This document shows positions 15,701 through 42,444 of a DNA stretch of 64,000 nucleotides, one piece after another. Position 1 is the first letter of the stretch. Each line of letters begins with the position of its first letter. The stretch spans positions 1 through 64,000 of the forward strand of contig JAPEUD010000021.1 in NCBI GenBank assembly GCA_026026165.1, read 5' to 3'. This DNA comes from Sarea resinae. Lineage: Eukaryota. Under the pieces are notes generated by a model. That model saw nothing but the letters and a program-made list of their open reading frames with translations. It made no database searches and was not told where the DNA came from. The position numbers and the translations under genes were made by a program.

Positions 15701-18700
15701 CACTTTGCTATCGTTGACTCTGGAGCTCAAGTGACGGCGAGATTTGACGAGCACGTCATCAGCACCGAGCAAGTGAAGAGGCTTTTTCCCCAGCTTGAAA
15801 CTGTGCTACGCCATATCTGTTCACCAGCCACTCCCTCCCCAAGCCTGACCAAGATCGATACTATCAGTGATGAAGATCTTCGAGCCATTACTCTTTGGAA
15901 TGGGACACCTCATGAGAGTGTTCAAGATCTTGTTCACACCCTCATCTCTCGCACAGTCCAGGCAATGCCAGACTCCCCTGCCGTATCCGCTTGGGACGGA
16001 GAGCTTACTTACCGCCAGCTCGATCAGCTTTCCACTCGTCTGGCCCACGAATTAGTTCAGCTTGGCGTCGGACCAGAAGTCATTGTGCCCATCTACTCTG
16101 AAAAGTCCATGTGGGTGCCGGTTTGTGTGGTAGCTGTGATGAAGGCGGGCGGGGCAGGCGTGATGATCGACTGCACACAGCCTATCGAACGAGCTCAAGG
16201 CATTGTCAGCCAGATACATGCAAGACTCGTCCTCGTATCAAGAAATAACGTTGAGCGGGCTGCGCAATTTGAAGGGCTACAGCTCCTCGTTATCGATAAA
16301 GCTTCTTTGGACGGCTTGCCGGATCCAAAGGGAGGATTCCCTCTGCCACAACAAGTTCAGCCTTCGAACCTCGTCTACGTTTCTTTTACGTCGGGGAGTA
16401 CGGGCAAGCCAAAGGGTGCTATGATTACGCACTCCTGCTTTGTATCCTCTATAAAGCACCAACAAAGAGCTCTTGGCTTCAGGGCCGGTCAAAGGGTCTA
16501 TGATTTTGCGTCTTACGCTTTCGATGCCAGCTGGTCAAATGTGCTTCACTCATTGACGTCGGGAAGCTGCTTGTGCATCCCGTCAGAGTACCAAAGAACC
16601 AATGCGCTTTCTGATTCAATCAGAGACAGTAAAGCTACTCTGATAAACGCAACTCCTTCCGTTCTGCGCCATCTCGATCCCAGAGAACTCGCAGATCTAG
16701 AACAAGTTTTGCTGGGCGGAGAAGCTTGGTCCGAGGCAGATTTTGGTGACTGGATCGACTACACGAAGCTAATCAACAGCTACGGCCCTGGTGAATGTAC
16801 CATAAAGGCCTGCCTCATTCGCGCTGTCCGAGGCATGATCCCCAACAATATCGGAGTTGGCATAGGCCTCAATACATGGATCGTGAGAACGGATGGCTCG
16901 GATCGACTTGCACCGTTGAGCGCCGTTGGTGAGCTTTGGCTTGAGGGCCCACAAGTGGCGCGCGGTTACATAGCGGACGATTCAAGGACCTCTGCTTCGT
17001 TTGTGACAAGGCCCAAGTGGACGCAGTGCAATGGCCCAGCATGCCGTTTTTACCGCACGGGTGATCTAGTTCGTTACGGGCCAGATGGCACTCTGATTTT
17101 TGTCAGCCGCAAAGACTCGCAAGTCAAGATCCGCGGCCAGCGTACGGAACTGGGAGACATCGAGCACAGCATTCAAAAAGCCCTTCTTGCGGGCGATCTC
17201 AGGGCCCAGGTCATCGCTGATGTGTTTAAACCCCACAACAGCGATAACCCCATTCTCGTCGCGTTTTTAAAGGCCGAGGAAGCCGACGCATGGCAGAGGC
17301 CTGCCGGCGTGGACAAGCGCCTCGCAAAAATGGTACCTGAATACATGATCCCGACTGCTTACATTGTCCTACAGGAGTTCCCTATGACTGCGACAGGCAA
17401 GATTCACCGCAGGTCTCTGCGTGAAACCTACGCCAAAAAGACGCTGCAGCAACTTGTCGCACAAGATGCATTTCACGTGTCTGGCCATCGAAGTCCGAGC
17501 ACCGCCTCCGAAAAGCTTCTACGGGATCTCTGGGCTGGGATTCTTCAAATTGACCCCGCAACAATCTCGGCCGACGACAGCTTTCTTCGGATCGGGGGCG
17601 ACTCTCTCGGGGCAATGCGGCTTGTCAGCGCTGCGCGAAAGCAAAGTCTTGCACTCAGTGTCGCTGATATTTTCAAGTATCCGAAACTCAGCGCTCTTGC
17701 CGAGATTATTGAAGCGCAAAAACCTTCCTTGCAGCTAAATCAATCCACCATTGAGGCTTTCTCGCTCGTCGACGGGAATATTTCTGCAGAAGAAGCAAAG
17801 GACCAAGCGGCACGTCTCTGCGGCCTCCAGGCCACTGACATTGAAGACCTTTTCCCCTGCACACCTCTGCAGGGTGGATTGCTGGCCGAAACTGTTCGAC
17901 GCCCAGGAGCTAATGTCTTGACTGAGACCAGGATGTTTAGAAAAGCTGTAGACGTTGGCCGCTTTCGTGCCGCGTGGCAAAAAGCCGTTCAAGCAAACCC
18001 CATTCTACGGACCAGGATCGTAGATGTCGCCCAACAAGGCCTCGTCCAAGTCATCGTCCGTTACGAACGCTGCGAGATTGAAGGAGGCGTATCCGTGCGG
18101 GACTTTAGCCTCGGCACGCCTCTAGTCTCCTATAAAATATCAGAGGCTTGCTTCTCCTGGAGTATTCATCACGCCCTCTACGATGGATTTTCGATGCCTC
18201 TAGTCTTTGATTCCCTGGCGAGGAGTTACCGATCGGAAATGGTTCAGGATGCTCCTCCTTTCCAGGCCTTTATAAAGTATGTCGGAGACTGCAGCCAAAG
18301 CATGGCGGAGGAGTTCTGGAAACGGCAGTTTTGCGATTTCAAGGCACAGATGTTTCCCATCCTACCATCGAAAAGCTACAAACCAAGTTGTGATCAGCGC
18401 CTGAAGCTCGACATAAAGAACATCGCTTCGGATGGCGATTTCACAGCGGCAACAAAGATTAGACTTGCCTGGGCCATTCTACTATCGGCAATCACAAACT
18501 CTGCAGATGCCTCGTTTGGTATGACAGTGTCCGGCAGACAAGCAAATGTACCTGGCATTGAGAACATCACTGGACCAACGATCGCCACTGTGCCGCTGCG
18601 AGTGGCAATTGATAGCTCAAAGACCGTGAACGACTTGCTTCATCAAGTGCAACTGCAGGCTGCAGATATGATGCCATTTGAACAATTTGGAATCCAGCAG

Positions 18701-21700
18701 ATACGGCGTCTCAGCGAGGATTGTACCCTAGGGTGCCAGTTCCAATCGCACATGGTCATTCAGCCCGGAGGCAACCACAACGCCGAAGATGCCCTGTTTG
18801 AACCCAACCTTGTGCGAAATGAAGCTGACGAGATTGATCCTTTCAAACTCTATGCCATCTGCCTGGAGTTCATCGTCAAGCCGAACAGCATTTGCCTCCG
18901 TGCTAGTTACGACTCTACCGTGGTGCCTCCAACACAATTCCGCCGCCTTGCGGACCGATTCGAAAACATCTTGCGGCAGCTCTCCGTGCCTGAAGTCCAG
19001 GCTCAGCCACTGTCTCTTCTCAATACTAGCAGCTTGGGGGATCTGAAGCAAATCTGGAGCTGGAACGAAACTCCTTTGGAGAGATCAGACCAAACGATCC
19101 ACGAGATTTTTAGACAAATCGCTGCGAGGCAGCCCGAAGCTCCGGCAGTCTGCTCATGGGATGGCGATTTTACCTACGGCCAGATGGATGAAATATCCAC
19201 GAAAATTGCCCACAAACTGCTCCGAGTTGGTCTTCCACAAAGTGGCCAACGCATTGTACCTTTGATGTTCGAAAAGTCGAAATGGACGTCGGTCTGCCAA
19301 ATTGCAGTAATGAAAGCCAATGCTACTTCCGTAGCGCTGGATGCTACGCTTCCCATTGGCCGTCTCCAGATGATCATAGACCTTGCCAAACCTCAAATCA
19401 TCATCGCCTCTGCGGAACAAGAATCTAGAGCACGAGAGTTGGTTCCTCCAACTACACAAGTCATAGTGTTGAGTGACAATGAGACGCCTACTTTTAGGCT
19501 TCCCACAGATTCGTCTCTGCCGGCTGTGGACCCGGAAACTTGGCTGTATATGGTCTTTACTTCTGGCTCGACCGGCCTCCCCAAAGGTGCGATCATCAGC
19601 CACTCCAACTTCGCAAGCGCGCTCAGATATGGACAAACGGCGTTGAGGTTCGGCCCTCATACTCGCGCATACGACTTTGTGTCTTATGCTTTTGACGTCT
19701 CCTGGCTCAATGTGCTGTATACTCTTTGCTCGGGCGGATGTCTCTGCATCCCATCTCACTATGAGATTCAGAATGAACCAAGGAGGCTATTGCTCGCAGG
19801 CGTGCCAACACTGCATTTATCACTCCCACAGTTGGCAAACTACTGCGCGGAGCAGACCTCAAGTTTATCAATTACGGTGGCGAAAACTTGCCGCGGGATG
19901 AAATTCGTTATTGGGAAAAACGGGCTCAAATCATCCACTCGTATGGCCCATCCGAATGCACGCCGATTTCTATTTCTCACATTCTCGATCCCGCACGAAG
20001 TCGTGTGGTCATCGGCAAAGGTCTCGGGGCACGAACTTGGATCGTCGAGCCAGAGCGCGGAAACGCGTTGGCGGCTGTTGGCGACATTGGCGAGCTTTGG
20101 CTTGAAGGGCCTCTTGTCGGCCAAGGCTATCTTGACGATACAGAGAAAACAGATGCAGTATTCGTCAAGGATCCCGAGTGGCTCAAACGAGGCTGCCCTG
20201 GATTTGCCGGTCGGCATGGACGTCTATATCGTACAGGTGATCTAGTTCGATACGAGGAAGACGGTAACCTCGAGTTTATCGGGCGCAAAGACGCCCAGAT
20301 CAAGATTCATGGACAGCGTGTGGAGCTTGAGGAGATCGAGCACCATATCCTCGATGCTATTGGAGAGGCTACAGCAATTCAGGTCGTTGTGGACATGGTC
20401 AAGCCAGCCGGCTCCACCGAACCAGCCTTGGTCGTCTTCGTCAAGCTCTCGCATGGGACGATTGTTCCTGATACGCTGGAAGCGCAAGCTTACGCACAGA
20501 AACTTGCTGCTTCTACCAGGGATCGGCTGTCAGCCACACTACCAAGCTACATGATCCCGAATGCCTATATGATTGTAGACAGCATTCCAAATACGACATC
20601 CGGAAAAGTGGACCGTGGCAAACTGCGCAAAGCGGCATCATCGATGCGAAAAGAGGATCTCCTCCGAGTAGACTGCATTGGGAGACGCGCTCCAAAATCC
20701 CGACAGGAGATGGCGCTCCATGCTATTGTCGCACAAGTACTCTCGTTGGGTGGCGAGTCTTTTGGCATGGACAACAACTTCATCCAGCTTGGTGGGGACT
20801 CTATTAGTGCCATGAGACTGGCATCGATTGCCCGTGACAAAGCAATGTTCGTGACCGTCGCGGATATTCTTACCAAAGACCGGATCGCTGATCTTCTCGT
20901 CCCGGATTATGAGATGCACCTCGGAGACGAAAGCGAACAGCTGCGCTTCGCCTTGCTAGATATTGCAGACCCGAGCGCCTTTGTCGAAGAAGTGATGCCG
21001 CAAGTTCACTCCGGTCACGGTGAGCTTATTGACCTTCTACCGGCAACAGACATGCAGTCTACCTATCTGAGAGATAACCTCCACGCACCCCGGCGGTCCT
21101 GATTTTACAGTCATATCGACTTTGACCAGATTTCGGACGAGCATCGTCTCATCCAGAGCTGTGAGCAATTGGTTAGGCACTGCGACATCTATCGAACAGC
21201 CTTTGTTCGCTCCGGTCGTTCCTTTTTCCAGGCCATCTTTGATACTTGGAAGCCCACAATCGACATTATCAACGTTGAATGTGTGGACGCCGCATTCGAC
21301 AAGCTCGTAGAAGAAGAGGTGAAGTTGTCGGCTTCCCTCAGAGCTTCTCTACTGCAGTTCAAGCTCTTCCACGGACGAAGCGCAAAATCCAGACTTGTCT
21401 TTAGCATGTCGCATGCCATCTACGACGCAATTAGCTTTAGTCAAACCCTCCAGCTTCTGACCGACATATATTATGGCTCTCCCCTGAAAACCAAGGACTT
21501 CAGATGCTATGTCAACCACATCCAATCGCACAAGGCAGACAGCTACTCCTACTGGCGCAAGACCCTTCGAAACTCCTCAATGGCCACGATACCGTGCAAC
21601 TCGACCGTACCCACTCAGGATGGCCCGCCTACCGTGCTCGTACGCTCTGTCCCTAGGCCAAACGCACCCTCTGGCATCACGCAGGCTTCTCTCTTCACCT

Positions 21701-22254
21701 TAGCCTGCGCCTCCGCCCTCAGCTACCTCACCGGCTCTCCCGATGTTGTCTTTGGCCGCGTCGTATGCGGTCGTGCTACCGTTCCCGCCTCCCTACAGGA
21801 CGTTGTCGGTCCTTGTCTGAATCGTCTGCCCGTGCGCGTCCACTTTGCATCCGGCCAGACTAAAATCGAGCGGCTAGTGGTCCTGCAAAAGCAGTACGCA
21901 GAAAGTCTTGCCCATGAGACGACCGGTCTACTGGACATTGTCAAGCACTGTACCGACTGGCCGCCCAACACCAAGGATTTTGGCTGCTGGACACAATATC
22001 AGAATGTAGATGAGAAGCCCGTGCTCGCTCTGCCCGGTGCCATGGGCGGTCTGCGAAGCAAGGAGATGTGGCATATTCCCGTCGCGGCGGACTTCTTGGA
22101 GATTTTTGCCATCCCGAGCGGCCAAGGCACGCTCACAGTGAGGCTTATTGGAGGTCCTGGTTATGCGGCAGCCGACATTATTGAGTTGCTCGAGCGGGTT
22201 TGCACGGAGTTGGTAGATACACATGATACAAAATGGGCCGCCTCTAATGATTGA
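9791..22254 (+). pseudogene. Trimodular NRPS (partial C - A1 - T - E - C - partial C - A2 - T - C - A3 - T - terminal CT), disrupted in module 3
   Basis: A-domain cores FTSGSTGxPKG three times, YGPxE, YRxGDL, RKDxQxKI; T motifs GGDSI, GGDSL, GGDSI; E domain HHAVMDLVSWRI and EGHGRE; C motifs HALMD and HHALYD; terminal SHAIYD. Intron 14909-14953. 1-nt frameshift at about 19781 and in-frame TGA at 21100-21102. Confidence 0.9.
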
Positions 22255-22370: not shown

Positions 22371-23631
22371 TCATTTCCCCTTCTTTTCGTCCTTGAATTG
22401 ATCCTCTGACTGGTCCTGAAGATTGAAAATGAGATCGCCCTTTAGTTTACCGACTACCGCCATGGGTTTGTTTCGATGCAAGCGTTCTGCTTCCGGGACC
22501 TCAAGCACTTCGTCAATGAGCTCTTGGGCCACGATAGTAGCAATTGAACCTGCTCCGTCCGAATTTCCAAGGATAACGGCACCAAACTTGAAGCCAGGTA
22601 GGAAGAAGTGGTAGCTTTCAAATCCAGGTACCGCGCCATCGTGCCCGACAACCATATGCCCCCGATAATAATACACCTCCAGTCCAGCGGCGTATGCTAT
22701 CGGGGACGAGTACGGTTTCAATCTTCTGGCATTAGGATTCTGAAAGGCCCGCATCCGGATAAGGCCATGGTAGACTCTTTCATTGACGGGGATTTCGCGG
22801 TTCATCAAAGCCTTGACCCATATAATGTAGTCATTCACGCTCGTGATGATCGAGCCGGCGCCTTGAGCCTCCGGACAATCTGGGCTGTGGAATCCACGGT
22901 ATGTTGAGCTAATCTTGTCCCACGTGTAATCCGTCGCAATACGGTCTCCAAAACCCTTAGCTTGAGCGCTCGCAGGCCGAAGACTGGTCGACTGCATACC
23001 CAGCGGCCGAAAAAAGCGCTCGTGCAGGAAATCAGAAAAACTTTGCTGGCTTTTCACCTCTACCAGGTGCGTCGCCACAGTGAACATCATATTGCAATAC
23101 ATATATTTGGCGCGGATAGGTGCAGCCACGGGCAGGTTTCGCAGGTTCCTCGTGACCGATCGTGCATCGTCTGGATGCGCCGCTCGCACGCTCAAATAGG
23201 AACTGTCATGGCTGCATTGTACAGTCAGTGATAATCAACAGTCGAATGAGTGGGTTTGGTTACCCAGGCATGCCGCTTCTGTGGCTCAGAACATCCTCCA
23301 CGGTAACACCCTCTGTGTATCCAACGCCAGGCATAACGAAATCATCGGGCAGCAGGCTGGACATGGTAGCAGTGTACTGCACCTCGGAGTAGTTCTCATT
23401 ATCGTCCACGAGCAATCCAACCGATGCAGCAGTCAGTGATTTCGAAGATGATGCAATGTCAAAGAGTGTATCTGCTGTACACGGTATTGGCGGTTCAAAA
23501 GATGCTTTTCCATAGCCTTGAGAAGCCACTTGGTCATTCTGTAAAATCGCAATAGCGAGACCCGGCACATGATGTTGATGCATCAGATCTTCTACATGGG
23601 CAGAGAACGCTGAAGAGTGGGAGAATTCCAT
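22371..23631 (-). CDS. Serine beta-lactamase / AmpC-like peptidase family protein, 2 exons
   Basis: HHVPGLAIAI, SxxK (IASSSKS), LSHRSGMP, YxN (YMYCN), HxG (GHDG). Intron at about 23262-23212 joins ..GMPG to HDSSYL in frame. The C-terminus may be short. Confidence 0.88.
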
Positions 23632-24828
23632 AGTTGAGCATGTAGGAACAAGTGAGAAGAATAGAAAAATCAAACGATGTAAATATGCTTCGTACTCAAC
23701 ATGTCTTGATATTTCAGAAAGTTCCTTCAGTCGAATTAATGTTAGATCATGAGTCACCCTGCATCGGCTAGGCAGACGCGTCTTTGCGCGGGCGACCGAT
23801 GGCCTTCGATGACTCTTCAGCCTTAGCTTTATTCCATGTAGCTGATCCCTCGTGCTCACGTCGGATTTCACTCGAGGATGCCTGATGCAGGTGAGCGACA
23901 CTGCTTGTATATGATTTGCTGTAAAATTCGCATCCAAACTGACACATCTGATGTTTTCACATACTAGCGAGGCGTTCGGCAGGAGCTTGATGTTATTGCT
24001 CTTCCCTCCAGTATTTTGCTCTCGCGTCATCCGACATGCTTGGTGTTAAGCATTAGGTGTCAGGACGTAGGATCCGCATATTAAAACGTGCCGATCGAGG
24101 CCTGAGGAGAGGCGAAATTGAGGATGACTGAGCGGCCGCGTCAAGACTGATCAAACGAAATCGGCACCCCGAAAAAAGGGGCGGATGAGGCTGATGATGG
24201 TGATAGGAAGAGCAGAACAGTAACAATCGCAAAAGGTCCGAGCAATACCACAAATCGATGGATGAGATAATATAGATGAGTTAGACGGAGTCCAAAGCGT
24301 GATGTGTCGAGACTAGTCCGGTAGGCTGGAATCGCGGTGCCCGTCAGAGACGTGATACAATGAAGTTCAGCGGGACAACTCGCAGCGCTCCTTGACGTCT
24401 GATTGAACCTCAGGGCCAGGAACTTACTATAAACAGGTCATCTGTCGATTAAGAAGAGTTAGATAATCAGATCACAGCCATCAATGTGGTGAGCAAGAGC
24501 AAAAGCGTAGGCGTTGAAACGAGGACAGTCCAGCGAGAAACGCAATTTGAAGAGCTCAACATCAATTCGTGCAAGACTGAGGAATATCATCCCACGTGGC
24601 TCATTTCATCCAGTCTTGGTGAATGGCGTAATTGCAGTAGCCGAAGAACGCGTCGTACTTTGAAAGTTGTCTCCTCCCTTCTGGTCCTTCTCATCGCGTC
24701 AGCTCACCATCCTCATTCCAGTTCTACTATTCCACAACTTCAATCACAGCCACCAGATCACGCCCATCAGAGAGCCATCCACGTTGTGTCAATCTCTGTC
24801 ATCACTCATACTATTTCTCCCTTTTCTT

Positions 24829-24982
24829 TGTGGGGCCCTCGTGGCATCCGCAGTTTTGTTTCTCGCCCTCATCCCCTCATCTCATCTTCTTTGTGGAGCC
24901 CTCGTGGCATCCGCAGTTTCGTTTCTCTTTCCATCACCTCACCTTCCCCTTTCTTTTGTGAGGCTCTTGAGCTTCGCAGTTG
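24829..24982 (+). repeat. Array of 3 stem-loop repeats upstream of the 25025 ORF
   Basis: TGTGGGGCCCTCGTGGCATCCGCAGTTTTG (24829), TGTGGAGCCCTCGTGGCATCCGCAGTTTCG (24892), TGTGAGGCTCTTGAGCTTCGCAGTTG (24957); spacing 63-65 nt with pyrimidine-rich spacers. Confidence 0.9.
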
Positions 24983-25024
24983 TGGACTTTTCACTATCCT
25001 CCCACCCGATCTTTACAGCACAAG

Positions 25025-27442: not shown

Positions 27443-30058
27443 TCATTGTCGAAGCAGGCGAATTTGTTCAGCATTTGCTGCAGAGGCTGCCTCAACCATC
27501 CTGAACAAAGCATCCAGGAGGTCATCTAGACGAAGTACTTGGAGGTACTTTCTCAGTGCTGAGCCTTTTTCGACAACTACGGACTCGCCACTTCCCCATC
27601 GAACAAACACGCCAGTGGCATCGCCATCTATCGTGAAGTCGTTGGCGAAGTAGCTGACGACCCCCTCCTTCTCATCAAAAACGCCGACCGAGGTGTCGTC
27701 CCTGACCAGCGTGACATATCGGTTTTCTTCCGGAACATCGACCAAGCGGAAAAGCCAGTGATTGGTCGTCCCTCCTTGGACTTCACTTTGGCCGTGCAAG
27801 TTCCAGATAATCGAGGGGAGAGACAACTTGAGCGATTCTGATTGGGCGTGGTCGGTCGCATACCCCAGTATTTGATATGCCCCCATCCCTAAAAGGTCGT
27901 CGGGAGTCTCGTCGATTGGCAGACTCAGATCTGGGCACATCAGATGCAATCGGGCCATTAGGATTAATGCCATAGCCCGATCCAATCCGTGGCGAGCGGG
28001 GCTGACCAAAACCGGCTTCAGGAGCGCGCGGAGCATGACCACGGTCCAGGATTCGATGGCCTCCTTGTCCAGGATCTGCTGAATCCAAAGGAGCCTCTCC
28101 GTGGTCGCCATCTGGTTTCTTCTCAGAAGAGCAAAGAGAAAGTGCACTGTTGGCTGGGGGGTCGCTGTTGCCGTTGGCGTGCCGGGGTATTTGTCTGCGA
28201 ACCGAACCAGTTCATGACCGCGTGTAACGGCCATGTCCTCCGTCCACTCCGTCTCTTCAATGCCGAGGTGACGAATGACTTGAGCAATCTCAGCCATTGA
28301 CAGGGACTTCCCCAAGCATTGCGAGTCCGCCAGCATCATCATAACCGACTCTCCGGTTTGTCTCTCTTGAAGTCGTCGGCTGAGATCTGCAGCTTCGGCA
28401 GTGGTTCTGTCCCGAACGGTCTGCATCTCCAGCCTGAGCGCCGAGATCGTCTTATCCTTGTCTGCCAGGCTTTCTTGCAGATTCTCAAGCGTTGATGGGT
28501 CGGCCGCATTGCTAGCCTGGAGAAAAAGCAACTCCATCTTGAGGGCTGAGATTATTATGTCTTTGTCTGCCAGAACGCCTTGCATATCCTTCAGCGTCGC
28601 ATCGTTGGCCGCGTTCTCGTCCCTGGATGCGATCAAGGTCTCACAGAGCAGTCGGACATGTTCATCCCGTTCCTGAAGAGTTGAGACGTTAGCCGCATTG
28701 TTGTCCCGCAATGTTTGCAGCTCCACGTTGAAGGCCGAGGATGCCTCCTCCTTGGCTGCCAGAGTGCTTTGCAGTTCCTCGATTGTTGTAGCCTTGTCAG
28801 AAGCGGCGTTCTGGAGATCTTCAATCTTACGCTGGAGCGCCTCGAAGGAATCTTTCAGCCTTTGAGTCTCCACAGCTTTGGAATTGTCTGCAGCTTGGCG
28901 CTGATTATTTGACTGCTCAATGGAATTTTCCAAAGCCTGGACCGTCCGCTCCAGCTCTGTCATTATCTGGCCACGCTTCTCGATCGTCAGCCGCAGTCGC
29001 TCGGCCGCATCCTCCAATTTGTGAATGGTTGCATCCTTTCCGACTATCGTGTCCTCCAATCTGCGTTTTGATATTTGCAGTTCGTCGAGGGTGGTTTGCT
29101 CGGCGGTGCGAGCGACATTGTAGTTGTCTCGGAAGCGCCTCATGTCTTCCAGGGACTCTTGGTACTTCTGCTCGACATCGTTTTTGGACCGTCGAGCAGC
29201 CTCTGCATCACCAGCCAATTCCGTGACCGTCGTCTGCAGATCGCTGATCTGGTCATCCCTTTCGGCTACATTCGCCTCTGCGCTGGCCAGATCGGCTTGG
29301 GCAATCTCGAGATCTGCTTCTAGATTCGCTTGTATTGTCATGCCATCCGCAAGCTCTTTTTGAAATTCACGCTCTTGGTGCCGAATAGCTGCTGCAGTCT
29401 GATATGCAGCCTCATCCGTTGCTGCCTTGATTGCTTGACATAGCTGGGCAATGGTCCATTCATCTCCGGGACCGATGATGTGAGTCAGCGCCTCAGAAAC
29501 CTCCGGATCAGTCGGTCTCCATAGCGTTCCTTCGGTCACTAGTGCTTGCTCTGGTGCCGATCCCGCGTCGAATTGTTCGAAGGCTCTGACCTTTCCCGGA
29601 TCCAGGAGTGATTCTGGTACGTGATATACCTCCGTGAGAATACGGGCGGCCCAAGCCACTGCATATTGGCGCCTAGGCAAGGTAATATCATCGTCTATTC
29701 CGGGCATCTCTTCTACTAGCAATCTGTCTAGCCCTTTCTCCGCGTCCGCCAGTTTTTCCTCTTCGATCATCGTCACATCCACATAACCATCTTTAGCCTT
29801 GAGCTCCTTTATCCTTTCGACCATTGCGGCATGAATGTGGCGAACTCGGGCTAGATCTCTGCTTAATGCTGGCTCTGAATAATCTGCGTCGGATGTATTA
29901 GACTTTCCCAACTCCTCATCTCGGCCGAGGAATCTGTGTAGTTGCTCTAACGCTTCCGTTTGAAGGTCAACTGAGGCTAAAGACCTGCCGATTCTAGGCA
30001 ACCGAATTACTCTGCGCCCGGCTCCGGCACGAGGGTTTGGTGGGACTCGAGAAGCCAT
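27443..30058 (-). CDS. Intronless orphan protein of about 871 aa with a long central coiled coil
   Basis: Uninterrupted ORF; likely ATG at 30058 (MASRVPPNP), 57 nt downstream of a leader hairpin; E/L/A/Q-rich heptads across the middle; globular-looking ends. Confidence 0.8.
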   Translation of the reverse strand: MASRVPPNPRAGAGRRVIRLPRIGRSLASVDLQTEALEQLHRFLGRDEELGKSNTSDADYSEPALSRDLARVRHIHAAMVERIKELKAKDGYVDVTMIEEEKLADAEKGLDRLLVEEMPGIDDDITLPRRQYAVAWAARILTEVYHVPESLLDPGKVRAFEQFDAGSAPEQALVTEGTLWRPTDPEVSEALTHIIGPGDEWTIAQLCQAIKAATDEAAYQTAAAIRHQEREFQKELADGMTIQANLEADLEIAQADLASAEANVAERDDQISDLQTTVTELAGDAEAARRSKNDVEQKYQESLEDMRRFRDNYNVARTAEQTTLDELQISKRRLEDTIVGKDATIHKLEDAAERLRLTIEKRGQIMTELERTVQALENSIEQSNNQRQAADNSKAVETQRLKDSFEALQRKIEDLQNAASDKATTIEELQSTLAAKEEASSAFNVELQTLRDNNAANVSTLQERDEHVRLLCETLIASRDENAANDATLKDMQGVLADKDIIISALKMELLFLQASNAADPSTLENLQESLADKDKTISALRLEMQTVRDRTTAEAADLSRRLQERQTGESVMMMLADSQCLGKSLSMAEIAQVIRHLGIEETEWTEDMAVTRGHELVRFADKYPGTPTATATPQPTVHFLFALLRRNQMATTERLLWIQQILDKEAIESWTVVMLRALLKPVLVSPARHGLDRAMALILMARLHLMCPDLSLPIDETPDDLLGMGAYQILGYATDHAQSESLKLSLPSIIWNLHGQSEVQGGTTNHWLFRLVDVPEENRYVTLVRDDTSVGVFDEKEGVVSYFANDFTIDGDATGVFVRWGSGESVVVEKGSALRKYLQVLRLDDLLDALFRMVEAASAANAEQIRLLRQ

Positions 30059-30114
30059 TGTGTGCGGAGTGAGTCGTGATAGGATCCAAAGAACGAGAGA
30101 TGGTATAGGAACGA

Positions 30115-30142
30115 CGAAACTGCGAAGCCCAAAGGCCTCACA
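30115..30142 (-). repeat. Single stem-loop repeat upstream of the coiled-coil gene
   Basis: Minus strand TGTGAGGCC-TTTG-GGCTTCGCA-GTTTCG; 9-bp stem with G-U pairs. Confidence 0.9.
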
Positions 30143-30597
30143 AGTAACGACGAGAAATTGATGGTCTGAGCTGTAACGTGACATCCAGCGCAGAGGAGAG
30201 CAGTTCTTCTGATACGCCAGTAGCTTATGGATCGGTGGAAAGTCGCAGCGGTATGTATTCGGGAAGATGGATGGAGTCAAGTAAAGCGTCGCGGAGGATA
30301 GATGGAGGATTGATGAAGTCAGGTAAAGTGTCGCAGGATGTATGGATTCGGATGCACTGCCGCCGCGAAGCGAGAGGTGAATCAAAGAAGAGTAATGGCA
30401 CAGACTTTGCTTGATGGTGTGTGCCTTTGCTAATTATTGAATACGAGTTGTGCCATGAGCACCATCTTCTCTCACCATCTTCTCTCAACACCACCACTCA
30501 ACACCATCATACCATCATCAGCATACCCCCACCCACGGTGATTACGTCTACTTCGTGTCAGTCTTTGGTGATATATTGCTCCTCTTCCCATCGTCCT

Positions 30598-30625
30598 TGT
30601 GGGGCCTTTGGGCTTCGCAGTTTCG
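30598..30625 (+). repeat. Single stem-loop repeat upstream of the GIY-YIG-like gene
   Basis: TGTGGGGCC-TTTG-GGCTTCGCA-GTTTCG, 58 nt before ATG 30683; one difference from the inverted copy at 30115-30142. Confidence 0.9.
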
Positions 30626-30682
30626 ATTCCCTCAATCATTATTCATTACCATCTCATCCTCAATATCACACACCCCACTACA

Positions 30683-32287
30683 ATGGATTCGCCGCAAATA
30701 GGATCCTCCCCTCCCGAACGGTCTCCTCGGTCTCCTCAACTTCCCTCGACTCAAAGTCTCGTATCACCTCACCAAGAAGCTCCTCGTGGACAACCTTCTG
30801 AGATGAGACTCACTTCGCCTCGCTTCTCAAGTGTTTCCCTCGTTGAAGAGACACCTCCTCCACCTGTAATAGTCGACTATGTGGCAGATTTCCCGGATTA
30901 TCCATTTGACCCTTTGCAGAAGGAATTCATGGAACAGCTCGAGCTTAGTGGGGATGGCGATTTGCTTAAAAGCATCAAGAAGCAAGGTAATGGATGTACC
31001 TTTCCAGCAGATGACAACAATGACTGACTGGTTTCGATTTTCAAGACATGATCGATCCTTTTAGCAGCCAAACAAACATCTTTCTCCGGGCCGAAAGATA
31101 TGCTAAGGTCTATGGATGTCAGGTCCTCTTTTCCCTGCCGAAGGAAGTCAAGACTGGGTTAATCAAGGGGGATCTTTTGACGCGACAGCCGCCGATCCAG
31201 TTGACAGGCCAGGCTCGACTGAGGGATGTGGAGCTCGCCAAGAAGGCGTGGCCTGTGATATACGGACATTTTCACGTACATCGCAAGACAAAGCAGGCTC
31301 CAACGGCCAACCAGTACTTCAGGGTCATCGGTGATATCGAAAATTACATTCAGCATTTCATGGGGGTTCGGGTTACCAACCATGCTCACGATCTGAATGC
31401 GCACAGGATCGACGCAGTCATCCAGACCGGAAAACCCTGTGGTTTTCGAGATGGAGACTCATTGACGGGCAAGCGGCGATATTGTCAGAGTGATGCATAC
31501 CGCGCACACATTGAGACATGGCTGGCAGGATTACGTTGCCGGCTTAGACTTATTCCCATAGCGCATCACGACAAGCCAATCCCATGGCCTTTGTGCGGAG
31601 TTGGGTACACTTCTGACCCGGCCACCACAGAACAGCAACATCGCGAGCATACGAGTTCTCAGCAACTCATGTACCTGGTCCGCTCGGCATTTGATCGCCG
31701 CTGGCCAGACAACTTCGAGATGGAGTTCATGGTCCTGTACGAATGCTGGAATTCCGAGCAAGCTCCAATTGCTGAGCATGTCATATCACGACTTTGCTTC
31801 TCATACGTCCCACATGGCGGATTCAATGTGACATTAGGTGGGGTAGGCAACATATCAGCTCAGGATGAGCCTGAGACTATCTATGAGCCGATTTGGGAAG
31901 ACGTCCTCGAACGTGGTCACTTTACAGAGAATCTTGAGTTCGCGAACGATTGCGTTGAGAGGAAATTAGACTTGGTCAGACAGATCAAGCAAATCAAGGC
32001 GGAAGTGGCCGAATTCGAGGTGCTCAAAGTTGAGCATCTGGCCAAGAGGAAAAGGTTAGCAAGGCTCCAACACGAAAATGCGGTCCGAGGTAAGCTTGCA
32101 AACCATCTATGTGATGATAGGACTAATTGGAAAAGGTGCTGAAATAGAGAGACTCTCTATCCCCTACCTTAAACGTGTTCTGGCAGACATCAAAAAAGCG
32201 AATGAGATACTAGCGGAGTCGGAAGTTTTGGCAGCTTTTGCGGCAGATGTCAATGAATTGGCCGAGCTTGGCAGGAGACCGCAGTAG
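30683..32287 (+). CDS. Hypothetical protein of about 500 aa with a GIY-YIG-like nuclease domain and C-terminal coiled coil, 3 exons
   Basis: Introns 30987-31045 and 32090-32135 (GT..CTRAY..AG) join three ORFs in frame. Motifs VGYTSDPATTEQQH, AxxAExxI and GGFNVTLGG resemble the GIY-YIG pattern (YxG..R..QH..E..GxN). The gene model is better supported than the domain call. Confidence 0.65.
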
Positions 32288-35825: not shown

Positions 35826-38800
35826 CTAGGCCCCAGCAATCCTGAGGGTCCCTTGCACCCTCACGGCGTTTGCCCCGAGAAGCTTCAGGACATCGGCCAT
35901 AGGGCAGGGTTTGTTGGGTACCCTCTTGCTCATGGTCGGCTCGTGGCTGACGGTGATGAACACTTCCCGTGCCCTTGATGTGGCGACATTGATGCGGCGG
36001 GGGTGGTGGAGGAAACCTAGGGTGTCATCGGCACGGACGAAGCTGAATACAGGACTTGAGCTTCGGAGCCTTGGAACTTTTCTCTGGTCTCAACCTGCGA
36101 CGTCCAGCCATGCTCGGCCCGTATCGTCCTCAACAGGTCGACCTGATCCCGGTACGGGGTCAGGTCGACCACCTCGGCCGGCGCAATGCCCATCTTCATC
36201 AGTCCCTGCACTATAGTTGACACTACTAGTGCTTCTCGTCGAATGGAGACTATAGTGTTGATGGCATGCTGACCCTCGTGCACGTTGAAGACGTACTTGG
36301 TCGAGTTGAGGCTGAAGGCCCGGCCGGAGTCGTCGAAGAAGTTGACCGTGAGAGCGATCTCGCAGAACCGAGCGCTGAAGGGCCGGTCGACGCTCGTTGG
36401 GAAGGGGATGATGCGACCATCGTAGAACCGGACGCTGGTATGCGTGGCCAGCTCCTTATGCGCCTGGTACTGGATCCTTACCAGGGCGTAAGGCCAGCCC
36501 GAGTCGATCATCCGCTCTATCGGGGTCACATCCCATGCGCGGCTGCCCTCACCGATGATCATGACCGGACCATTCTGCTTGTAGTCGCCCGTGAAGTATG
36601 CGGCCCGGAGAGAAGGCTGCGACAGGATTGGCAGCAGACTGTCTGGGTCCTTTGCCGAAACGACCTCGTCAACGATGAGATAGTCCGCCTTGAACTTCCT
36701 CAGGAGCTTCAGGCCCAAGTTCGTACAGGTGCCGAACAAGACCTGAGTGCCCTCCAGCACCATTTCGTCGAGGGTGACCGACTGCCCTATCTGTTATCTC
36801 TATCAAAGTTTAAGTCTCTCTTTCTGATTATTTTCTACGCCCTGTCCCTGCAGTGTAGCCTCGCACTAGTTTCATAAGATTATTCGCTGTTATTAATGTT
36901 CCCAACCAGAATTAGTATTAGGAAAGATGTATTGCACAACAACCACAGAATAATTGACTTTTATAATCTTCTTGTCCTTTCCCTTTTGTAGAGTAGTAGT
37001 GTCTAACTCTTCTTAGTTTATTTTTTAGTTCTTAGAGTATTATATTAGAAGTAGTTACAACAGGCATTTTAAATGAAACTACTTACATCCTAGGCTTTTA
37101 GAAGAAAGTCTACGCTCTTTAGCTTCTCTCTTTCCTCTCTTATAGAGATTTTGTTAATAATATTATAGACATGTATAACAGCCTCTAGCTTATAGCTGTA
37201 TCTCTGTAGAAATTGTATTATAGCCTAGTTACGTTCACTAAGCAAGAGTGATTTTTCCGAAACGCTTTTATTAAACATACCTTTTGTAGAGCATAACCCT
37301 TGTAGGAGTCTGCTATTTTGGAAGGAAGTTAGGTAGTGCAGTGGTCTAAGAGTTAAGTGCCCGCTCGCTCCCGTCTTGGGTCGAGACAAGTCCGTCAGTC
37401 TCTCGATCCCGGACAGATATGGAGCCCATTGGACGGGGCTGAGATAAGCGATCCTCAGCCTCAGCGCATCCAGATCGGACGGGGTGCTCGACATGTTTAC
37501 CTGAAGCCCACGAGCCACACGTCGCCGTATGATCTGGCTCTAATAGTGGACGCGAAACGCCTTGAATGGCACATTGTACCGCCTCAAGCAGGTGGCACAC
37601 TTATGCTTGGCAATTTCTATGGCTGCAACATACCTATTGCTAAATTTAATATCACATCTTTTGTAGCTTCCTCCTTATTAGCTTCTTGATTCAATCATCT
37701 ATAGGTAGGACTCTAGTATAAGCTATAGTCAGACTTGTCTTCTGTATTTCAAGATATCTTGCGGTCGAGTCTAATCAGGATTAGCTAGGCAAAGGACACT
37801 ATTTACGTTAACGATTCCATGACCTTTACTTAAGTCGTCTGTTGCAAAATTATAAGGCTAGGGTAGATCCTGTAGGCAGCTTCTTTTTCTGCCTTTGCTA
37901 GTCGTCGACAACTTTCTCGCCGCGTCGGCGTGTCGATCGGCAGTAGGGTCGGCGAAGTCGACGGTGACATGGATCCCCTCTTGCACAAGGCCGTCGTATT
38001 TCTGCACGTCGACTCTATCTTCGACGATGCCGACGACTGATCCAGAGAAGGGCAACTCCGACTCGACCCGAACGCCAAGAACATCTTCGCCATCGTCGGC
38101 ATCGGGCTCAGGGTTCGTGAGCCGGATTCGCTGGCCGGAACTGATATCCCAGGCCCCCGTAGCTGCTTGCACCGGTTCGATCTGCGCCACGATGAACCCA
38201 CGATACGCGTGGTAGCGGACGGTGCAGCACTCACGCTCTTGACCGTTCAGCCTCTCTTTTGCGGCCTTTGACTCTGCAGAGATCGCGTCGAGATTCATCT
38301 TAATGTACTCTCGGAGGTGTCGTTAGCTCATGAACTTTTTATCCGACACCTCTAGGAGAGGGTCCGCGGCGATGTACTTGTCTGCGAGTCGAATACGCAA
38401 GCCGTCATACTCCCGAATTTTCTTGCATGCGGGAATGTGTTCGGGTCGGAGCAAGCGAAGGCAATCTGGTCGGCCTGGTGGGAAACCTGGTCCGTATTGC
38501 GGGATCTTGCCGCCGTGTACGCATTGGGCTTGACGCTGAACGTGAACTCGGTCATGTTGTCAACGGTCCGGTGCTCGTACTCGATCTTCTCCCACTTGAA
38601 CACGACGCCGTATTTGACCGAGCTGGATTCGCCCTTTGGACTCACGCGCGATTGCCATATCGAGAGCTCTGGGTGAAGGGTCATCCTAGCATTGAAACCT
38701 GTTGGCGTTTCTTCAGGCAACTCCCCATCTCTTTTCCGAAGCATGAACCATAGTCGATCTTCGTCGCGGGCGTCGTTCGCCTCAGTAGAAAAGAGTACCC

Positions 38801-38846
38801 AAATGGGCAAAGCCTTCAACTTCTGGAGTTTCAGTGGTAGCACCAT
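35826..38846 (-). pseudogene. Upf1/DNA2/Nam7-like superfamily 1 helicase gene (copy B), fragmented
   Basis: Motifs LIVDE (II), GDYKQ (III), IQYQAH and FYDG (IV), LTPYRDQ, KFQGSE (V) and, after a frameshift near 36050, RRINVATSRAR (VI). N-terminus MVLPLKLQKLKALPI at 38846. Walker A was not found; AT-rich tracts interrupt the gene at about 36790-37340 and 37600-37890. Confidence 0.8.
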
Positions 38847-38875
38847 GACGAAAGCGTTGGAGGGTCGGGAGAATG

Positions 38876-39159
38876 GAAATTGCGAGCGTTACTCAGAGAC
38901 ATGGCCACAAACAGCTAACCAGGGAGGAGAAACACTGACATGAAACTGCGAGAGTCACGAGGACTTCATAGACAAAGGAACAAGAGAAAAAGAGGAACAC
39001 ACACAACACTTCGGGAGTACGATCACACGAAACTGCGAAAGCCGAAAAGTTTTACAATCAAGAGAGAGAAAAAGAAGGTAGACACAGTGAAGTACGCTGA
39101 TCTCAGAGATGAACAACAGAGAAGAGATCGAAACTGCGGAAGCCGAAAGACCCTACACA
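38876..39159 (-). repeat. Array of 4 partly degenerate stem-loop repeats upstream of helicase copy B
   Basis: Plus-strand units GAAA(C/T)TGCG...CACA/CATA/TACA at 38876-38909, 38941-38970, 39028-39056 and 39129-39159. Confidence 0.8.
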
Positions 39160-39540
39160 GACGACGACGAAGTAAGATAGGTCAAGGGAGAGACAAGCCA
39201 GATATCTGCGCGCCCGGGGTCCCATGACGCATTCTACACGAAAACAGCACATATCATCGCACCTCTAGCGTGACCGCACCCACGAGATGTTGCTTGTCAT
39301 TACGCTCCTGTGTTCCGACACCACATTTTCAACTGCCCGACGTATTCTTTCCCACCTAGCTACTAAAGGCATGATATGTAGCAGCTTGTCAATTTGTCTG
39401 GCCTTCAGCTGTCAATGCCGGTACTGATCCAGTGTCGCTCGGCACTCCTGCAAGCTTAGTTGATGTGGGTCGAGGGCGATCTTTAGTTAGACCGTTAGTG
39501 AATGACTTTTCGTTCCCTATAATGCTTGCTTCTGCTACAA

Positions 39541-39843
39541 TCAGTATAGAAAACCAAATTGGTAGCTGGCAAAGCTCAAGGTCGGTTTGACTCTCGCGGC
39601 TTTTGCTTTGAGCAGCTGCATGACGTCGGCCATAGGGCAGGCCTTGTTAGGAACCCTCTTGTTCATGGTTGCGCGTGAATAGTAAGCTATCGGCGCGGAA
39701 AATGTTGAACACGATACTTCCCATCTTGTTTCAAGCGTGTACCATGTCCGATCGTCGTTGGCGACATCGTCCGTACCCGTAGAGAAGACGATTGTGATGG
39801 GCAAGTTCTTCAGCTTCTGAAAATTCAGTGGTGGGACCGACAT
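39541..39843 (-). CDS. 100-aa internally deleted mini paralog of the helicase gene (copy A)
   Basis: N-terminus PLNFQKLKNLPITIVFST..DDRTW matches copy B PLKLQKLKALPIWVLFST..EDRLW; C-terminus TMNKRVPNKACPMADVMQLL matches copy B TMSKRVPNKPCPMADVLKLL. Confidence 0.7.
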   Translation of the reverse strand: MSVPPLNFQKLKNLPITIVFSTGTDDVANDDRTWYTLETRWEVSCSTFSAPIAYYSRATMNKRVPNKACPMADVMQLLKAKAARVKPTLSFASYQFGFLY

Positions 39844-39866
39844 CGCGAAGGTATTGAAAGGGGTAT

Positions 39867-40198
39867 CGAATTGCTGCTGCGAGCGTCACCAAGAGCCTCA
39901 CAAAGCAATAATCGAGGATATAAACACTTACACGAAACTGCGAAGCCCAAAGGCCCCACAGACGAACGGGGTTTAATAAACGCACACGAAACTGCAAAGC
40001 TTAAAGACCCCACAAACAAACTGGAGGGTGATGACACACACGAAACTGCGAAGCCTAAAGGCCTCACAGGTAACGAGAAACTGATGGTCTAGAAACTTGC
40101 GTAGAGTAAATGAGAACTGCGAAAGTCACTAGAACCTCACACCAAACAATTGTGAAGGTGAAATACACGAAACTGCGAAAGTGACTGATGACCTCACA
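39867..40198 (-). repeat. Array of 6 stem-loop repeats with unique spacers upstream of helicase copy A
   Basis: Plus-strand CGAAACTGC...CC(T/C)CACA units at 39867 (degenerate), 39933, 39987, 40041, 40113 and 40168; period 54-55 nt for most units. Confidence 0.92.
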
Positions 40199-42444
40199 AA
40201 CAAACGAACCGGGAAGGTGAGGAAGAGAGTTTCTTGGAAGAGAGTTGATAGTGGAACGGTAAGAAAATCAGGTTTCTGTGACGAAGACTCGCGTACTTAT
40301 AGAGAGGCGACGTAATCACTCTCAAGAAGTAGGTGTGAAATTAGTGTGATTTTTAGGAGTGTTCTCTCTGCGAAACTCTTGCTCTGCTACTATACTCTAT
40401 CTTTTCGAAGAGTATAGTTTAGAAAAGAGCTTTCTCTATTGTTAAATTTGAATCTCTTGAAATTAGAACAGTAGTCGTATAAGTTTGTTAGGGTACTCTG
40501 CAGCAGTAAGATTATAACAAATATAGAAGTAATAAGCTCTAGGCTTGTTAAGACTATTTACTCAAGAATGGTAGTAAAGCAATTGTAGTGTATTTATGCT
40601 TCGTTCTTATAGAGGATTTCTTAGTCCTGCTTGAAATTGGTCGCTCGAGAAGGCAGCAAAGAGATTTGGTCGTGTCGTAAGACACGGCGACAGGCCGTAG
40701 ATAGTAGATAGTATATCGATCGTAATGTCGGAATCTTATATTTATACTGTGACCTGGCTCTATTACAGGCACTGTATTGCCAGCACTAAATCGTTCGCGA
40801 ATTCAGCACAGTCTGCAGAGCCAGCTAGGTAGTCTGTAGAATAGTGTGTTAGTATATTTCTATCGTGAGAGACCGGCCCCCTGGTTATAGCTGATGTCCG
40901 ACAGAAAGTGAACAGGTAAGTGAATGCTTATAGATAAAGTTTCTACTCGGCAGAGGTGAATGCCTGTGGGCGTAGAACTGCATTCACCGTGAAAGCCGAG
41001 TGGAAAAAAGATAAGGATGACATAGAGACAGCCGTTACAGCTGTTGCGAATCAATGAGCTCTTTCTGGCGCTTGAGCGACTTCTTCTCGAATATAAGCAA
41101 GACTCTAGCTTTAGCCTCTCGAGTCACCAAATCGTGCCAGAAAAGCACTGCAGAGAGGACGCGAGGGATCGAGCATCTTGCTAGATTCTCATAAGTCGTA
41201 GATAGCATCCTTCAACTTCTCAATCCAGGGCTCCCAAAACCCTCGAGGGCCTAGTGTCGCTGCTTAAGGTCAGCAGCTATGCATGCGAGAGAATGGCTGT
41301 ACTAACTGCATTATTCTACTCGAAGCATGCTCTAGCTTATTTGATGTGATCGTCGATGACAAGGGCTTACCAGTGGTTTATCAAGGAATGGTTGACAAGA
41401 GGTGGCTAACTGAGGAGGACGTTCCTTGCTTCGTTGATTCAAAGAGTCTGAATATAATTCATAAGAGGTTGCGTGAAAAAGAAAGAGAAAGCAGATTAAG
41501 CAGATTAAGCAGATATTTATATCTGCTGGTGTTCGGTTAGGCAACAGGCAATTCATTGTAGAACTAGTGGGGGAATCAACTTTCAGAAAGGGAAGTGACG
41601 GTGACTCGACTGGAAAAAGAAGCTTCACTGAGAAATAGCGTGTCAGAAGGGAGTGTGTATGATGTAGCATCTTAAAAGAGAACTTGTGTAATGCGTGGAA
41701 GGTAGATGAATGCCCCGACTTAGAGGATACAATGGCCATGTCAGCATTTCTGGCTCTGGACCGTGGCATGTTGCTCGGGTGAAGTAGCTCGTGGAGTTAT
41801 ATCGGGTTATATCCCAGCGAATTGTAATGCTCAAGGAATGTATTGCACCACTGGAACACATCGCGATACGTCAGCATTTGATATCTTCATCCAGCCAAGC
41901 TCTCCAAATTAGTCAGCAGTTGAGTTCAGGACGTGCCAGTATTACAACACGATCCCTTTCCGCCGCGTTTGCACTCGACAATCCGAGCACCGCTTCACTC
42001 ATAGGATCTACGAGCTTTGCGAGCATCCCCGACCTAAGGGGACCTTTCGTCATTGCAAAAAAGAACTAACCCAACGCAAAGATAATGTCGGTATCGGATC
42101 GATGACGAAGGGAGGGGCTTGTGAGGCATGTCTACACAAAGCAAACAAGCCAGCAAAGGAGCGAAAGTCGGAGATCTGTGTATGGCCGCTCTTTCAGCTT
42201 ATTAGAAGGCATTCTGATCATTCAAGACTGATGTGGAGGGCTCGTTGTTGGACATGCTGGCGGGGGTCTAGTCCCTCTGGTCAGTCTTCAGCGTATCGGA
42301 TACTCCATTGTCGTCGCTAGTCTTCTCATGGCATCCTTCAATAGCTATACCTTCGAATACAAGGATATTTCTAGCGAGTTACGTTAGTCTTCATCCCATT
42401 GACTGTAATATCTATCTGCTTACTTCTCCATGGCTAAATCAGAT

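Follow-up and report, generated by a model that had tools for sequence, protein, structure and literature searches.

We analysed 64,000 nucleotides (nt) of DNA from Sarea resinae (GenBank assembly GCA_026026165.1, contig JAPEUD010000021.1, positions 1 to 64,000 of the forward strand; this whole stretch is called the window in the following). The window is fungal nuclear DNA, and in it two long genes, gene B on the minus strand and gene C with short GT-AG introns on the plus strand, lie head to head, each preceded by one copy of a hairpin-forming element of about 30 nt. An earlier note on this DNA had described them as a divergent, intact pair of a coiled-coil gene and a GIY-YIG-like gene with mirror-image leader hairpins and had proposed a co-regulated functional pair, for example a nuclease and its scaffold or inhibitor. 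Both genes are indeed intact: gene B is one open frame of 871 codons whose product, P0001, is present letter for letter in the database with the same start codon, and gene C, after removal of its two introns (30987-31045 and 32090-32135), gives a spliced frame that reproduces P0002 exactly and begins MDSPQIG. It is also fair to regard B and C as the long genes that have stayed intact within a decayed accessory region, as their neighbours, genes D and E, are broken. The features of the pair are the following:

27443..30058, minus strand: gene B, encoding P0001 (871 residues), in which a coiled coil occupies the centre and the two terminal parts belong to no known family
30115..30144, minus strand: hairpin copy B (stem 30143-30120), 57 nt before the ATG of the coiled-coil gene; 50.8 bits with the covariance model
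30145..30595, no strand: core of the divergent promoter region between the hairpins, with repeats within
30596..30625, plus strand: hairpin copy C (stem 30597-30620), 58 nt before the ATG of the GIY-YIG-like gene; 50.6 bits with the covariance model
30683..32287, plus strand: gene C, encoding the 499-residue protein P0002; exons 30683-30986, 31046-32089 and 32136-32287

The two hairpins are the arms of an inverted repeat retrieved by a repeat search (30115-30144 and 30596-30625; 30 nt, 97% complementary at 29 of 30 positions, 451 nt between the arms), and the agreement in 27 of 28 nt reported earlier corresponds to the inner 28 nt of these arms. When up to 3 mismatches were allowed, the 30-mer had no match in 100 dinucleotide shuffles of the window. 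Read in the sense of the gene, both arms are predicted to fold as.((((((((((....))))))))))., a stem of 10 pairs with a UUUG loop, at energies of -15.0 kcal/mol for B and -14.0 kcal/mol for C (z-scores -4.5 and -3.7; none of 200 shuffles is as good), as against -6.3 and -4.0 kcal/mol for the antisense strand. The sole difference between the copies, A or G at position 7 of the 30-mer, had been said to keep the pairing, and it does: the base pairs with U20 as A-U in B and as G-U in C.

From the end of the arm to the A of the ATG we measured 57 nt for B (30115 to 30058) and 58 nt for C (30625 to 30683), exactly as claimed before. The start codons are those of the database proteins, so the match in spacing stands, with the caveat that an in-frame ATG at 30184, followed by no stop before 30058, could extend the gene B protein by 42 residues; if this ATG were used, hairpin B would lie inside the coding sequence. 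As a signature of the pair, however, the matching distance loses its value, because a fixed distance to the ATG is not a trait of the hairpin family: the clusters introduced below as A, D and E end 41, 95 and 29 nt before their ATGs. Downstream of the hairpins, the leaders of B and C show weak similarity (score 6 versus -5.1 +/- 3.9; reached by 5 of 1000 shuffles), and upstream of the hairpins no similarity between the two sides was found (reached by 304 of 1000 shuffles). We read the two leaders, each of about 90 nt, as the products of an ancient inverted duplication after which constraint acted on the hairpin alone; it would have been kept at 29 of 30 positions while the rest decayed, and an inverted duplication of the whole leader would explain why the distances of 57 and 58 nt agree.

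Two further ideas about the hairpins were rejected. Copies B and C lie in different frames (offsets of 57 and 58 nt) and do not encode a shared N-terminal peptide, and the pattern GTGAGG...GCAG does not represent splice sites, given that the 23-nt unit is too short for an intron and that no AG follows downstream in the leaders of B and C. Within the divergent spacer, an 18-nt direct repeat, AGTCARGTAAAGYGTCGC, occurs at 30275-30292 and 30317-30334, and these are its only two copies in the window. Mid-spacer positions 30460-30485 are occupied by CACCATCTTCTCT, a perfect tandem repeat of 13 nt. Both repeats are possible upstream factor sites of a shared promoter. A scan for promoters and terminators of the bacterial type, which is not applicable to a fungus, found hairpin C again.

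A family of hairpins in five clusters

The element is not restricted to the gene pair. About 14 copies of it are present in five clusters between 24.8 and 40.2 kb, here lettered A to E, and genes B to E bear the letter of their cluster. The element consists of a stem, UGUGRGGCC / GGCUUCGCA, a loop of 4-9 nt and, behind the stem, a conserved single-stranded GUUUCG. A covariance model was built from six copies and run over both strands of the window with filters off; it returned 11 matches at E<=0.052, every one of them inside the five clusters, and the next match followed at E 2.1. Three degenerate copies (E2, E6 and D3) were added by regular expression or by eye. The 30-mer recurs on the minus strand (39933-39962 and 40041-40070), sequences with up to 2 mismatches to the 12-nt core TTCGCAGTTTCG are found at 24.85-24.98 kb on the plus strand and at 38.94-39.14 kb and 39.93-40.18 kb on the minus strand, and the regular expression TGTGRRG...YYYGCAG retrieves 11 convincing copies plus one likely chance match at 59342. 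Despite unrelated flanks, copy C agrees with copy E5 at 28 of 28 nt. In Rfam, searched over 24-41 kb at E<=1, nothing was found apart from one chance row for a small nucleolar RNA. The clusters are arranged as follows:

24827-24984, plus strand: cluster A, 3 tandem copies spaced 63 and 65 nt, ending 41 nt before ATG 25025 (plus) of an open reading frame (ORF) for a proline-rich protein
30115-30144, minus strand: cluster B, 1 copy; next gene start ATG 30058 (minus)
30596-30625, plus strand: cluster C, 1 copy; next gene start ATG 30683 (plus)
38941-39161, minus strand: cluster D, 3 degenerate copies (D1 28.8 bits, D2 16.1 bits, D3 E 7.1) before ATG 38846 (minus)
39872-40200, minus strand: cluster E, 6 copies including a tandem array with a period of 54 nt, before ATG 39843 (minus) of a 100-codon remnant

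The copies, their positions and their orientation are direct observations. Every copy is in the sense orientation of the next gene, about 30-360 nt before its ATG, and all five clusters point the same way as an ATG-started ORF of 100 residues or more that begins no farther than 360 nt downstream of them. Such a placement is satisfied by 19.5% of the strand-positions of the window, which corresponds to p ~3e-4 for five clusters and to 1.4e-3 when D and E are counted once because they are paralogs. We consider it likely that a set of neighbouring genes shares the hairpin as a cis-acting element of their expression, be it as RNA or as DNA. For the proposal of a co-regulated functional pair, this result has two sides: a conserved gene-sense leader hairpin fits common control of B and C, but the hairpin is not private to them. 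It precedes no fewer than five gene starts within 15 kb and cannot, therefore, single out these two genes as partners.

The arrangement of the copies also bears on a quite different explanation, namely that they are remains of a repeat or mobile element without any regulatory role, B and C being the inverted ends of a 511-bp insertion similar to a miniature inverted-repeat transposable element (MITE) and the arrays being subterminal repeats or a minisatellite. MITEs are found in fungal promoters, for example the mimp elements of Fusarium, and the locus resembles them in that short inverted repeats, separated by a few hundred bases, directly precede accessory genes; indeed, the 30-nt arms at their distance of 451 nt have a textbook MITE look. 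In addition, the outer clusters A (plus) and D/E (minus) face each other across 15 kb, and the island contains broken genes and a local duplication with internal deletion: broken frames follow the start of gene D (38846, minus), and gene E (minus), in which the first ~40 D-like codons are joined to a piece resembling a helicase C-terminus, is, to judge from its sequence, a local duplicate from which an internal part was deleted. However, a known terminal motif is missing from the supposed insertion, and so is a target-site duplication, no direct repeat being common to the flanks ...GGAACGA / arm and arm / ATTCCCT. The 451-nt interior has no second copy in 23-45 kb, and beyond the unit of 30-54 nt the clusters are unrelated in sequence. 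Tandem arrays in the same orientation also set the locus apart from MITEs, and it would be an unlikely accident that both 'ends' are fixed 57 and 58 nt before two start codons; moreover, five of five clusters lie just upstream of gene starts. Matches in viral or metagenome contigs are likewise absent. Altogether, we regard a mere repeat remnant as a quite improbable source of the hairpins.

Stem-loop in a leader or box in a promoter

Whether the element acts as RNA or as DNA is best approached through the relationship between its structure and its sequence. The pairing, which is observed on the sense strand only, is most evident in seven copies (A1, A2, A3, B, C, E3 and E5) that fold at -11.6 to -16.3 kcal/mol in the sense and at -4.0 to -9.5 kcal/mol in the antisense direction and that are equalled by at most 7 of 300 shuffles. 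Over the whole family, 12 of 14 copies have a more stable fold in the sense than in the antisense strand, owing to the G-U pairs that make up about a third of the paired cells. The stem persists with loops of different length and sequence (UUUG versus CCUCGU in A1 and A2); likewise, the distance from TGTG to GCAG varies by 0-3 nt and pairing is kept. A variable loop and a variable spacing of the two halves fit a hairpin better than a rigid bipartite DNA site. Some covariation is also observed: when 11 copies are aligned by fitting them to the model, pairing is kept in 98.1% of 107 cells, both partners change in 3 of 10 pairs, and registers slid against the proper one pair at 33-73%. The values for pairing and covariation are reached by 8-10 of 500 shuffles. 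The covariation is modest; fitting to the model biases the alignment towards the structure, and copies of common descent, as these are, can beat shuffles without any structure.

The sequences upstream of the start codons have features of leaders. No ATG is found over 401 nt before the start of the gene behind cluster A, over 125 nt for B, 227 nt for C and 1139 nt for E, compared with a window median of 43 nt; the chances of such lengths are 0.008 for A, 0.16 for B, 0.05 for C and <0.005 for E. G is absent from the 57 nt that separate hairpin C from its ATG, and most copies have a CT-rich tract in front of them. Leaders that are free of ATG and poor in G, as well as CT-rich tracts, are ordinary traits of fungal core promoters and 5' untranslated regions (UTRs). 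The region upstream of gene E (39844-40983, minus) deserves separate mention: its 1,139 nt without a sense ATG, for which the chance is <0.5% even when only 480 nt are considered, extend well past the hairpin array into AT-richer DNA (GC 0.44).

The explanation that we put first, and to which we give an even chance, is that the element is a stem-loop in the transcribed 5' leader that gives several accessory genes a common control. It would be located at the transcription start or immediately behind it and be recognised by a single trans-acting factor, and this factor would couple the expression of several neighbouring accessory genes at the level of translation, stability or initiation. The strict orientation relative to the genes, the G-U pairing on the sense strand only, the variable loops and the ATG-free leaders are the reasons why we favour a leader stem-loop over a DNA box.

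The DNA box in question would be a promoter element common to five promoters, either a transcription-factor site or a core-promoter or initiator box, in which the hairpin is incidental. The sequence itself is highly conserved: all 14 copies have GCAG, most have TGTG and, as their 3' tail, GTTTCG, and such conservation would fit any sequence-specific reader, RNA or DNA. Arrays of 3-6 copies at a spacing of 54-65 nt are reminiscent of upstream activating repeats, the CT-rich tracts already mentioned are in keeping with a promoter, and a TATA-like box, GATATATT, is located ~20 nt ahead of hairpin C. That 5 of 5 clusters are oriented like their genes is unusual for an upstream activator, though it suits a core-promoter element. 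The shifting distance between TGTG and GCAG speaks against a DNA element, as do changes from A-U to G-U and from C-G to U-A, which keep a pairing that exists in the sense strand only and would be meaningless for duplex DNA. We consider a purely DNA-level role rather unlikely. The bidirectional promoters of fungal gene clusters offer a comparison, as they too combine a divergent pair and a symmetric spacer with a motif that recurs at promoters of the neighbourhood; the motif described here differs in that it is a 30-nt hairpin of one strand, strictly gene-oriented and positioned near the ATG rather than in mid-spacer.

Several points weigh against the leader stem-loop, in addition to the limits of the covariation. 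For the other 7 of the 14 copies, between 26 and 207 of 300 shuffles fold equally well. TGTG and GCAG, the bases that vary least, might just as well be contacted by a protein on DNA, and with the TATA-like box ~20 nt ahead of it, hairpin C could contain or adjoin the transcription start, which would favour a role at the DNA level. Not every copy serves an intact gene, since array E, the best-kept and largest, heads a 100-codon remnant, and upstream ATGs are present at cluster D (one 56 nt upstream of the gene D start and another within the third copy, D3). The motif TGTGRGGYYYTTRRGCTTYGCAGTT has 0 matches in metagenome contigs and 0 in viral contigs. Finally, all evidence on the element is drawn from one 64-kb window of one genome, and we infer from sequence that the element is transcribed, that a factor binds it and that regulation is the outcome.

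Among known systems, a stem-loop in the leader would have its closest counterparts in the 5'-UTR regulons of the type formed by iron-responsive elements and iron regulatory proteins (IRE/IRP). The likeness consists of a sense-strand stem-loop of ~30 nt with conserved loop and flank, present in single or multiple copies at several unrelated genes, and of a stem that is kept through G-U and compensatory changes. Sequence likeness is absent, and in contrast to IRE/IRP the genes are physical neighbours, arrays of up to six copies occur 5' of a gene, and transcript and binding protein are putative. If the proposal is correct, coordinated control in a filamentous fungus would become accessible here with unusual clarity, through a conserved, strand-specific 30-nt stem-loop that precedes five unrelated nuclear genes of one neighbourhood and forms arrays of as many as six copies. 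To our knowledge, few leader-RNA regulons are known in filamentous fungi. Should the hairpins turn out to be no more than a promoter box or the remnant of a repeat, the finding would be an ordinary one.

The proteins of the gene pair

P0002, the product of gene C, is composed of a helical N-terminal part, an alpha/beta core (residues ~170-365) with a helical insertion of ~110 residues, and a C-terminal helix of ~100 residues. The model of the full-length protein has a predicted local distance difference test (pLDDT) value of 84, and the core modelled alone (residues 165-395) reaches 93.3. The earlier description as GIY-YIG-like is borne out at the level of the predicted fold. In the wide search with VIA-align, the core matches I-TevI (1ln0_A) with Z 8.0 and a root-mean-square deviation of 2.0 A over 87 aligned residues of a 92-residue chain. 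I-TevI is the only chain with Z>=5 among 48,161, and ranks 2-4, PD-T4-3 (4.8), T4 endonuclease II (4.4) and the UvrC N-terminal domain (4.0), are also GIY-YIG proteins, as are thus all of the top four. Foldseek places I-TevI (1mk0) at rank 2 for the core (prob 0.69, E 0.6). With the full-length model, both Foldseek and the wide VIA-align search returned only coiled-coil look-alikes of the C-terminal helix.

At the sequence level, P0002 has no Pfam family at E<=0.01, and 0 of 49 aligned family members have a credible Pfam match, be it to the GIY-YIG clan (PF01541 or its members) or to any other family. An exhaustive HMMER search for P0002 yielded 350 cluster representatives at E<=1e-3 and 56 at E<=1e-10, the best relative being 36% identical. 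The nearest clusters in the Atlas belong to Ascomycota and have no common Pfam family, and clusters of GIY-YIG, Eco29kI and T5orf172 proteins appear there at 0.77, at lead level; judged by the Atlas clusters alone, the family appears to be confined to Ascomycota. A limited literature search on fungal GIY-YIG and T5orf172 proteins and on Sarea resinae found no account of the gene C family or the hairpin motif. Close relatives of gene C were not found in viral contigs, and their genomic context is represented by one metagenome contig of 1,208 bp, too short to show neighbours. The genetic interpretation of the hairpins aside, the annotation of this 'hypothetical' family of 350 cluster representatives without a Pfam model with a GIY-YIG nuclease fold and a big helical insertion is of value in itself.

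The family conserves Y174, R245-R246-Y247, G288-[YW]-[TAS]-x5-R296-x3-H300-x2-H303, E345, Y355 and G-G-F-N362, so that the tyrosine, the G-[YW]-[TAS]-x5-R-x3-H motif, the glutamate and the asparagine follow each other in the order usual for the GIY-YIG superfamily (I-TevI, T4 endonuclease II, the UvrC N-terminal domain and PD-T4-3), with which the fold is also shared. Y174, part of V-I-Y-G, is tyrosine in all 43 aligned members that have a residue there (6 are gapped), and from its order and the fold match we infer that it is the equivalent of the I-TevI tyrosine. E345 is present in 49 of 49 members and N362 in 31 of 49 including P0002. Differences from the superfamily are the insertion of ~110 residues, which separates the first strands from the G-Y-T motif, the long C-terminal helix, the lack of a Pfam GIY-YIG match just mentioned, and the replacement of an arginine in P0002: position 296 is Arg in 48 of 49 members, and P0002 alone has Thr (codon ACA at 31627-31629). 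The spacing G-x-x-x5-R-x3-H is that of the classical second GIY-YIG motif, and R296 of the family presumably corresponds to R27 of I-TevI, which is needed for catalysis. Because this near-invariant arginine is missing, the gene C protein may be inactive as a nuclease, which casts doubt on the active enzyme that had been envisaged, and it may bind nucleic acid instead of cutting it. At position 314, P0002 has Arg versus Glu or Asp in 45 of 49 members.

When the family profile was compared with PDB sequences, a weak MDA5 row (E 0.003) and coiled-coil rows were obtained. The MDA5 match covers family positions 135-201 in the helical insertion; on the side of MDA5 it falls in the helical insertion domain and is obtained at E 0.003-0.011 with nine distinct PDB sequences. 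The likeness of these helical segments may be due to chance. Among the relatives of gene C, P0104 has a sub-threshold chromo domain (E 2.6e-4), P0081 is a protein of 1,919 residues with an AAA ATPase P-loop, and most long family members carry N-terminal extensions without a Pfam match.

For P0001, the product of gene B, the only Pfam signal is a sub-threshold match of the coiled-coil type, to Cast (residues 399-567, 22.3 bits versus a cut-off of 29.1), both of its ends lack relatives in PDB and Pfam, and word-index searches with residues 560-871 and 1-240 returned P0001 itself and nothing else. Atlas scores do not exceed 0.81, and the Atlas model has a pLDDT of 0.43. At word-index sensitivity, the gene B protein is thus classed as an orphan coiled-coil protein. 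A phmmer comparison of P0001 with 149 retrieved members of the gene C family gave no match and hence no fused form among them, and neither gene B nor gene C has a paralog within the window. A complex prediction with residues 165-499 of the gene C protein and residues 215-871 of the gene B protein scored 0.00; it was run without controls and is evidence neither way.

These results have to be set against the idea that B and C form a dedicated module of a GIY-YIG nuclease and a coiled-coil scaffold or inhibitor, co-expressed by mirrored leaders, an idea that is compatible with the other explanations of the hairpin. It agrees with the head-to-head arrangement, the symmetric 624-nt spacer and the matching leaders, with the intactness of both genes amid broken neighbours, and with the combination of a nuclease fold and a ~100-residue end helix in the gene C protein that could pair with a coiled coil. 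However, three other gene starts share the leader element, a protein without the arginine kept in 48 of 49 aligned members may have no nuclease activity that a partner could restrain, and, compared with the 350 representatives of the C family, no relative of B was detected in the word-index searches, in the Atlas or among the 149 family members. As far as these searches see, a pairing with B is therefore not an old property of the C family. The partnership proposed in the earlier note thus gained no specific support, and we consider a dedicated module of this kind very unlikely.

A more far-reaching version of the leader stem-loop proposal assigns a role to the gene C protein as well. The island would be a self-contained expression module, in which the structured leader element marks the mRNAs of fast-evolving accessory genes (those for the GIY-YIG-fold protein, the coiled-coil orphan and the proline-rich protein, and the helicase-linked gene) and is read by one island product. 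A candidate reader would be the gene C protein, which, without its catalytic arginine, would have turned into a hairpin-binding regulator. Such a system would be a fungal nuclear counterpart of leader-hairpin regulons of the IRE or phage type, possibly in a mobile or conflict-related element. This is speculation on our part, and we would be surprised to see all of it hold.

Surroundings of the gene pair

Within 35826-38888 on the minus strand, a helicase remnant at 35826-36793 comprises the C-terminal part of AAA_11 and AAA_12, and upstream of it no recognisable N-terminal ATPase part was found. A 101-nt repeat, 77% identical, connects this remnant (35836-35936) with the gene E remnant (39569-39669, within 39541-39843, minus).

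Upstream of the island, modules of a nonribosomal peptide synthetase (NRPS) occupy 9.7-22 kb and transporters of the major facilitator superfamily lie farther upstream at 4.4-8.3 kb. The NRPS modules, with A, T and C domains (9752-22254, plus), are divided among four successive ORFs, and a gene of the beta-lactamase family (22371-24030, minus) is divided between two; the splits in both are introns or frame breaks.

Beyond the island, on its other side, there are an ORF for a protein-kinase-like protein (42445-43239, minus), an ORF with a SesA domain (45538-46236, plus) and an ORF for an RNA recognition motif (RRM) protein (49606-50553, minus). SesA is an N-terminal domain of fungal proteins of the NACHT/NLR type. 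The presence of the kinase-like, SesA and RRM ORFs beside the island suggests a variable region of the type involved in non-self recognition.

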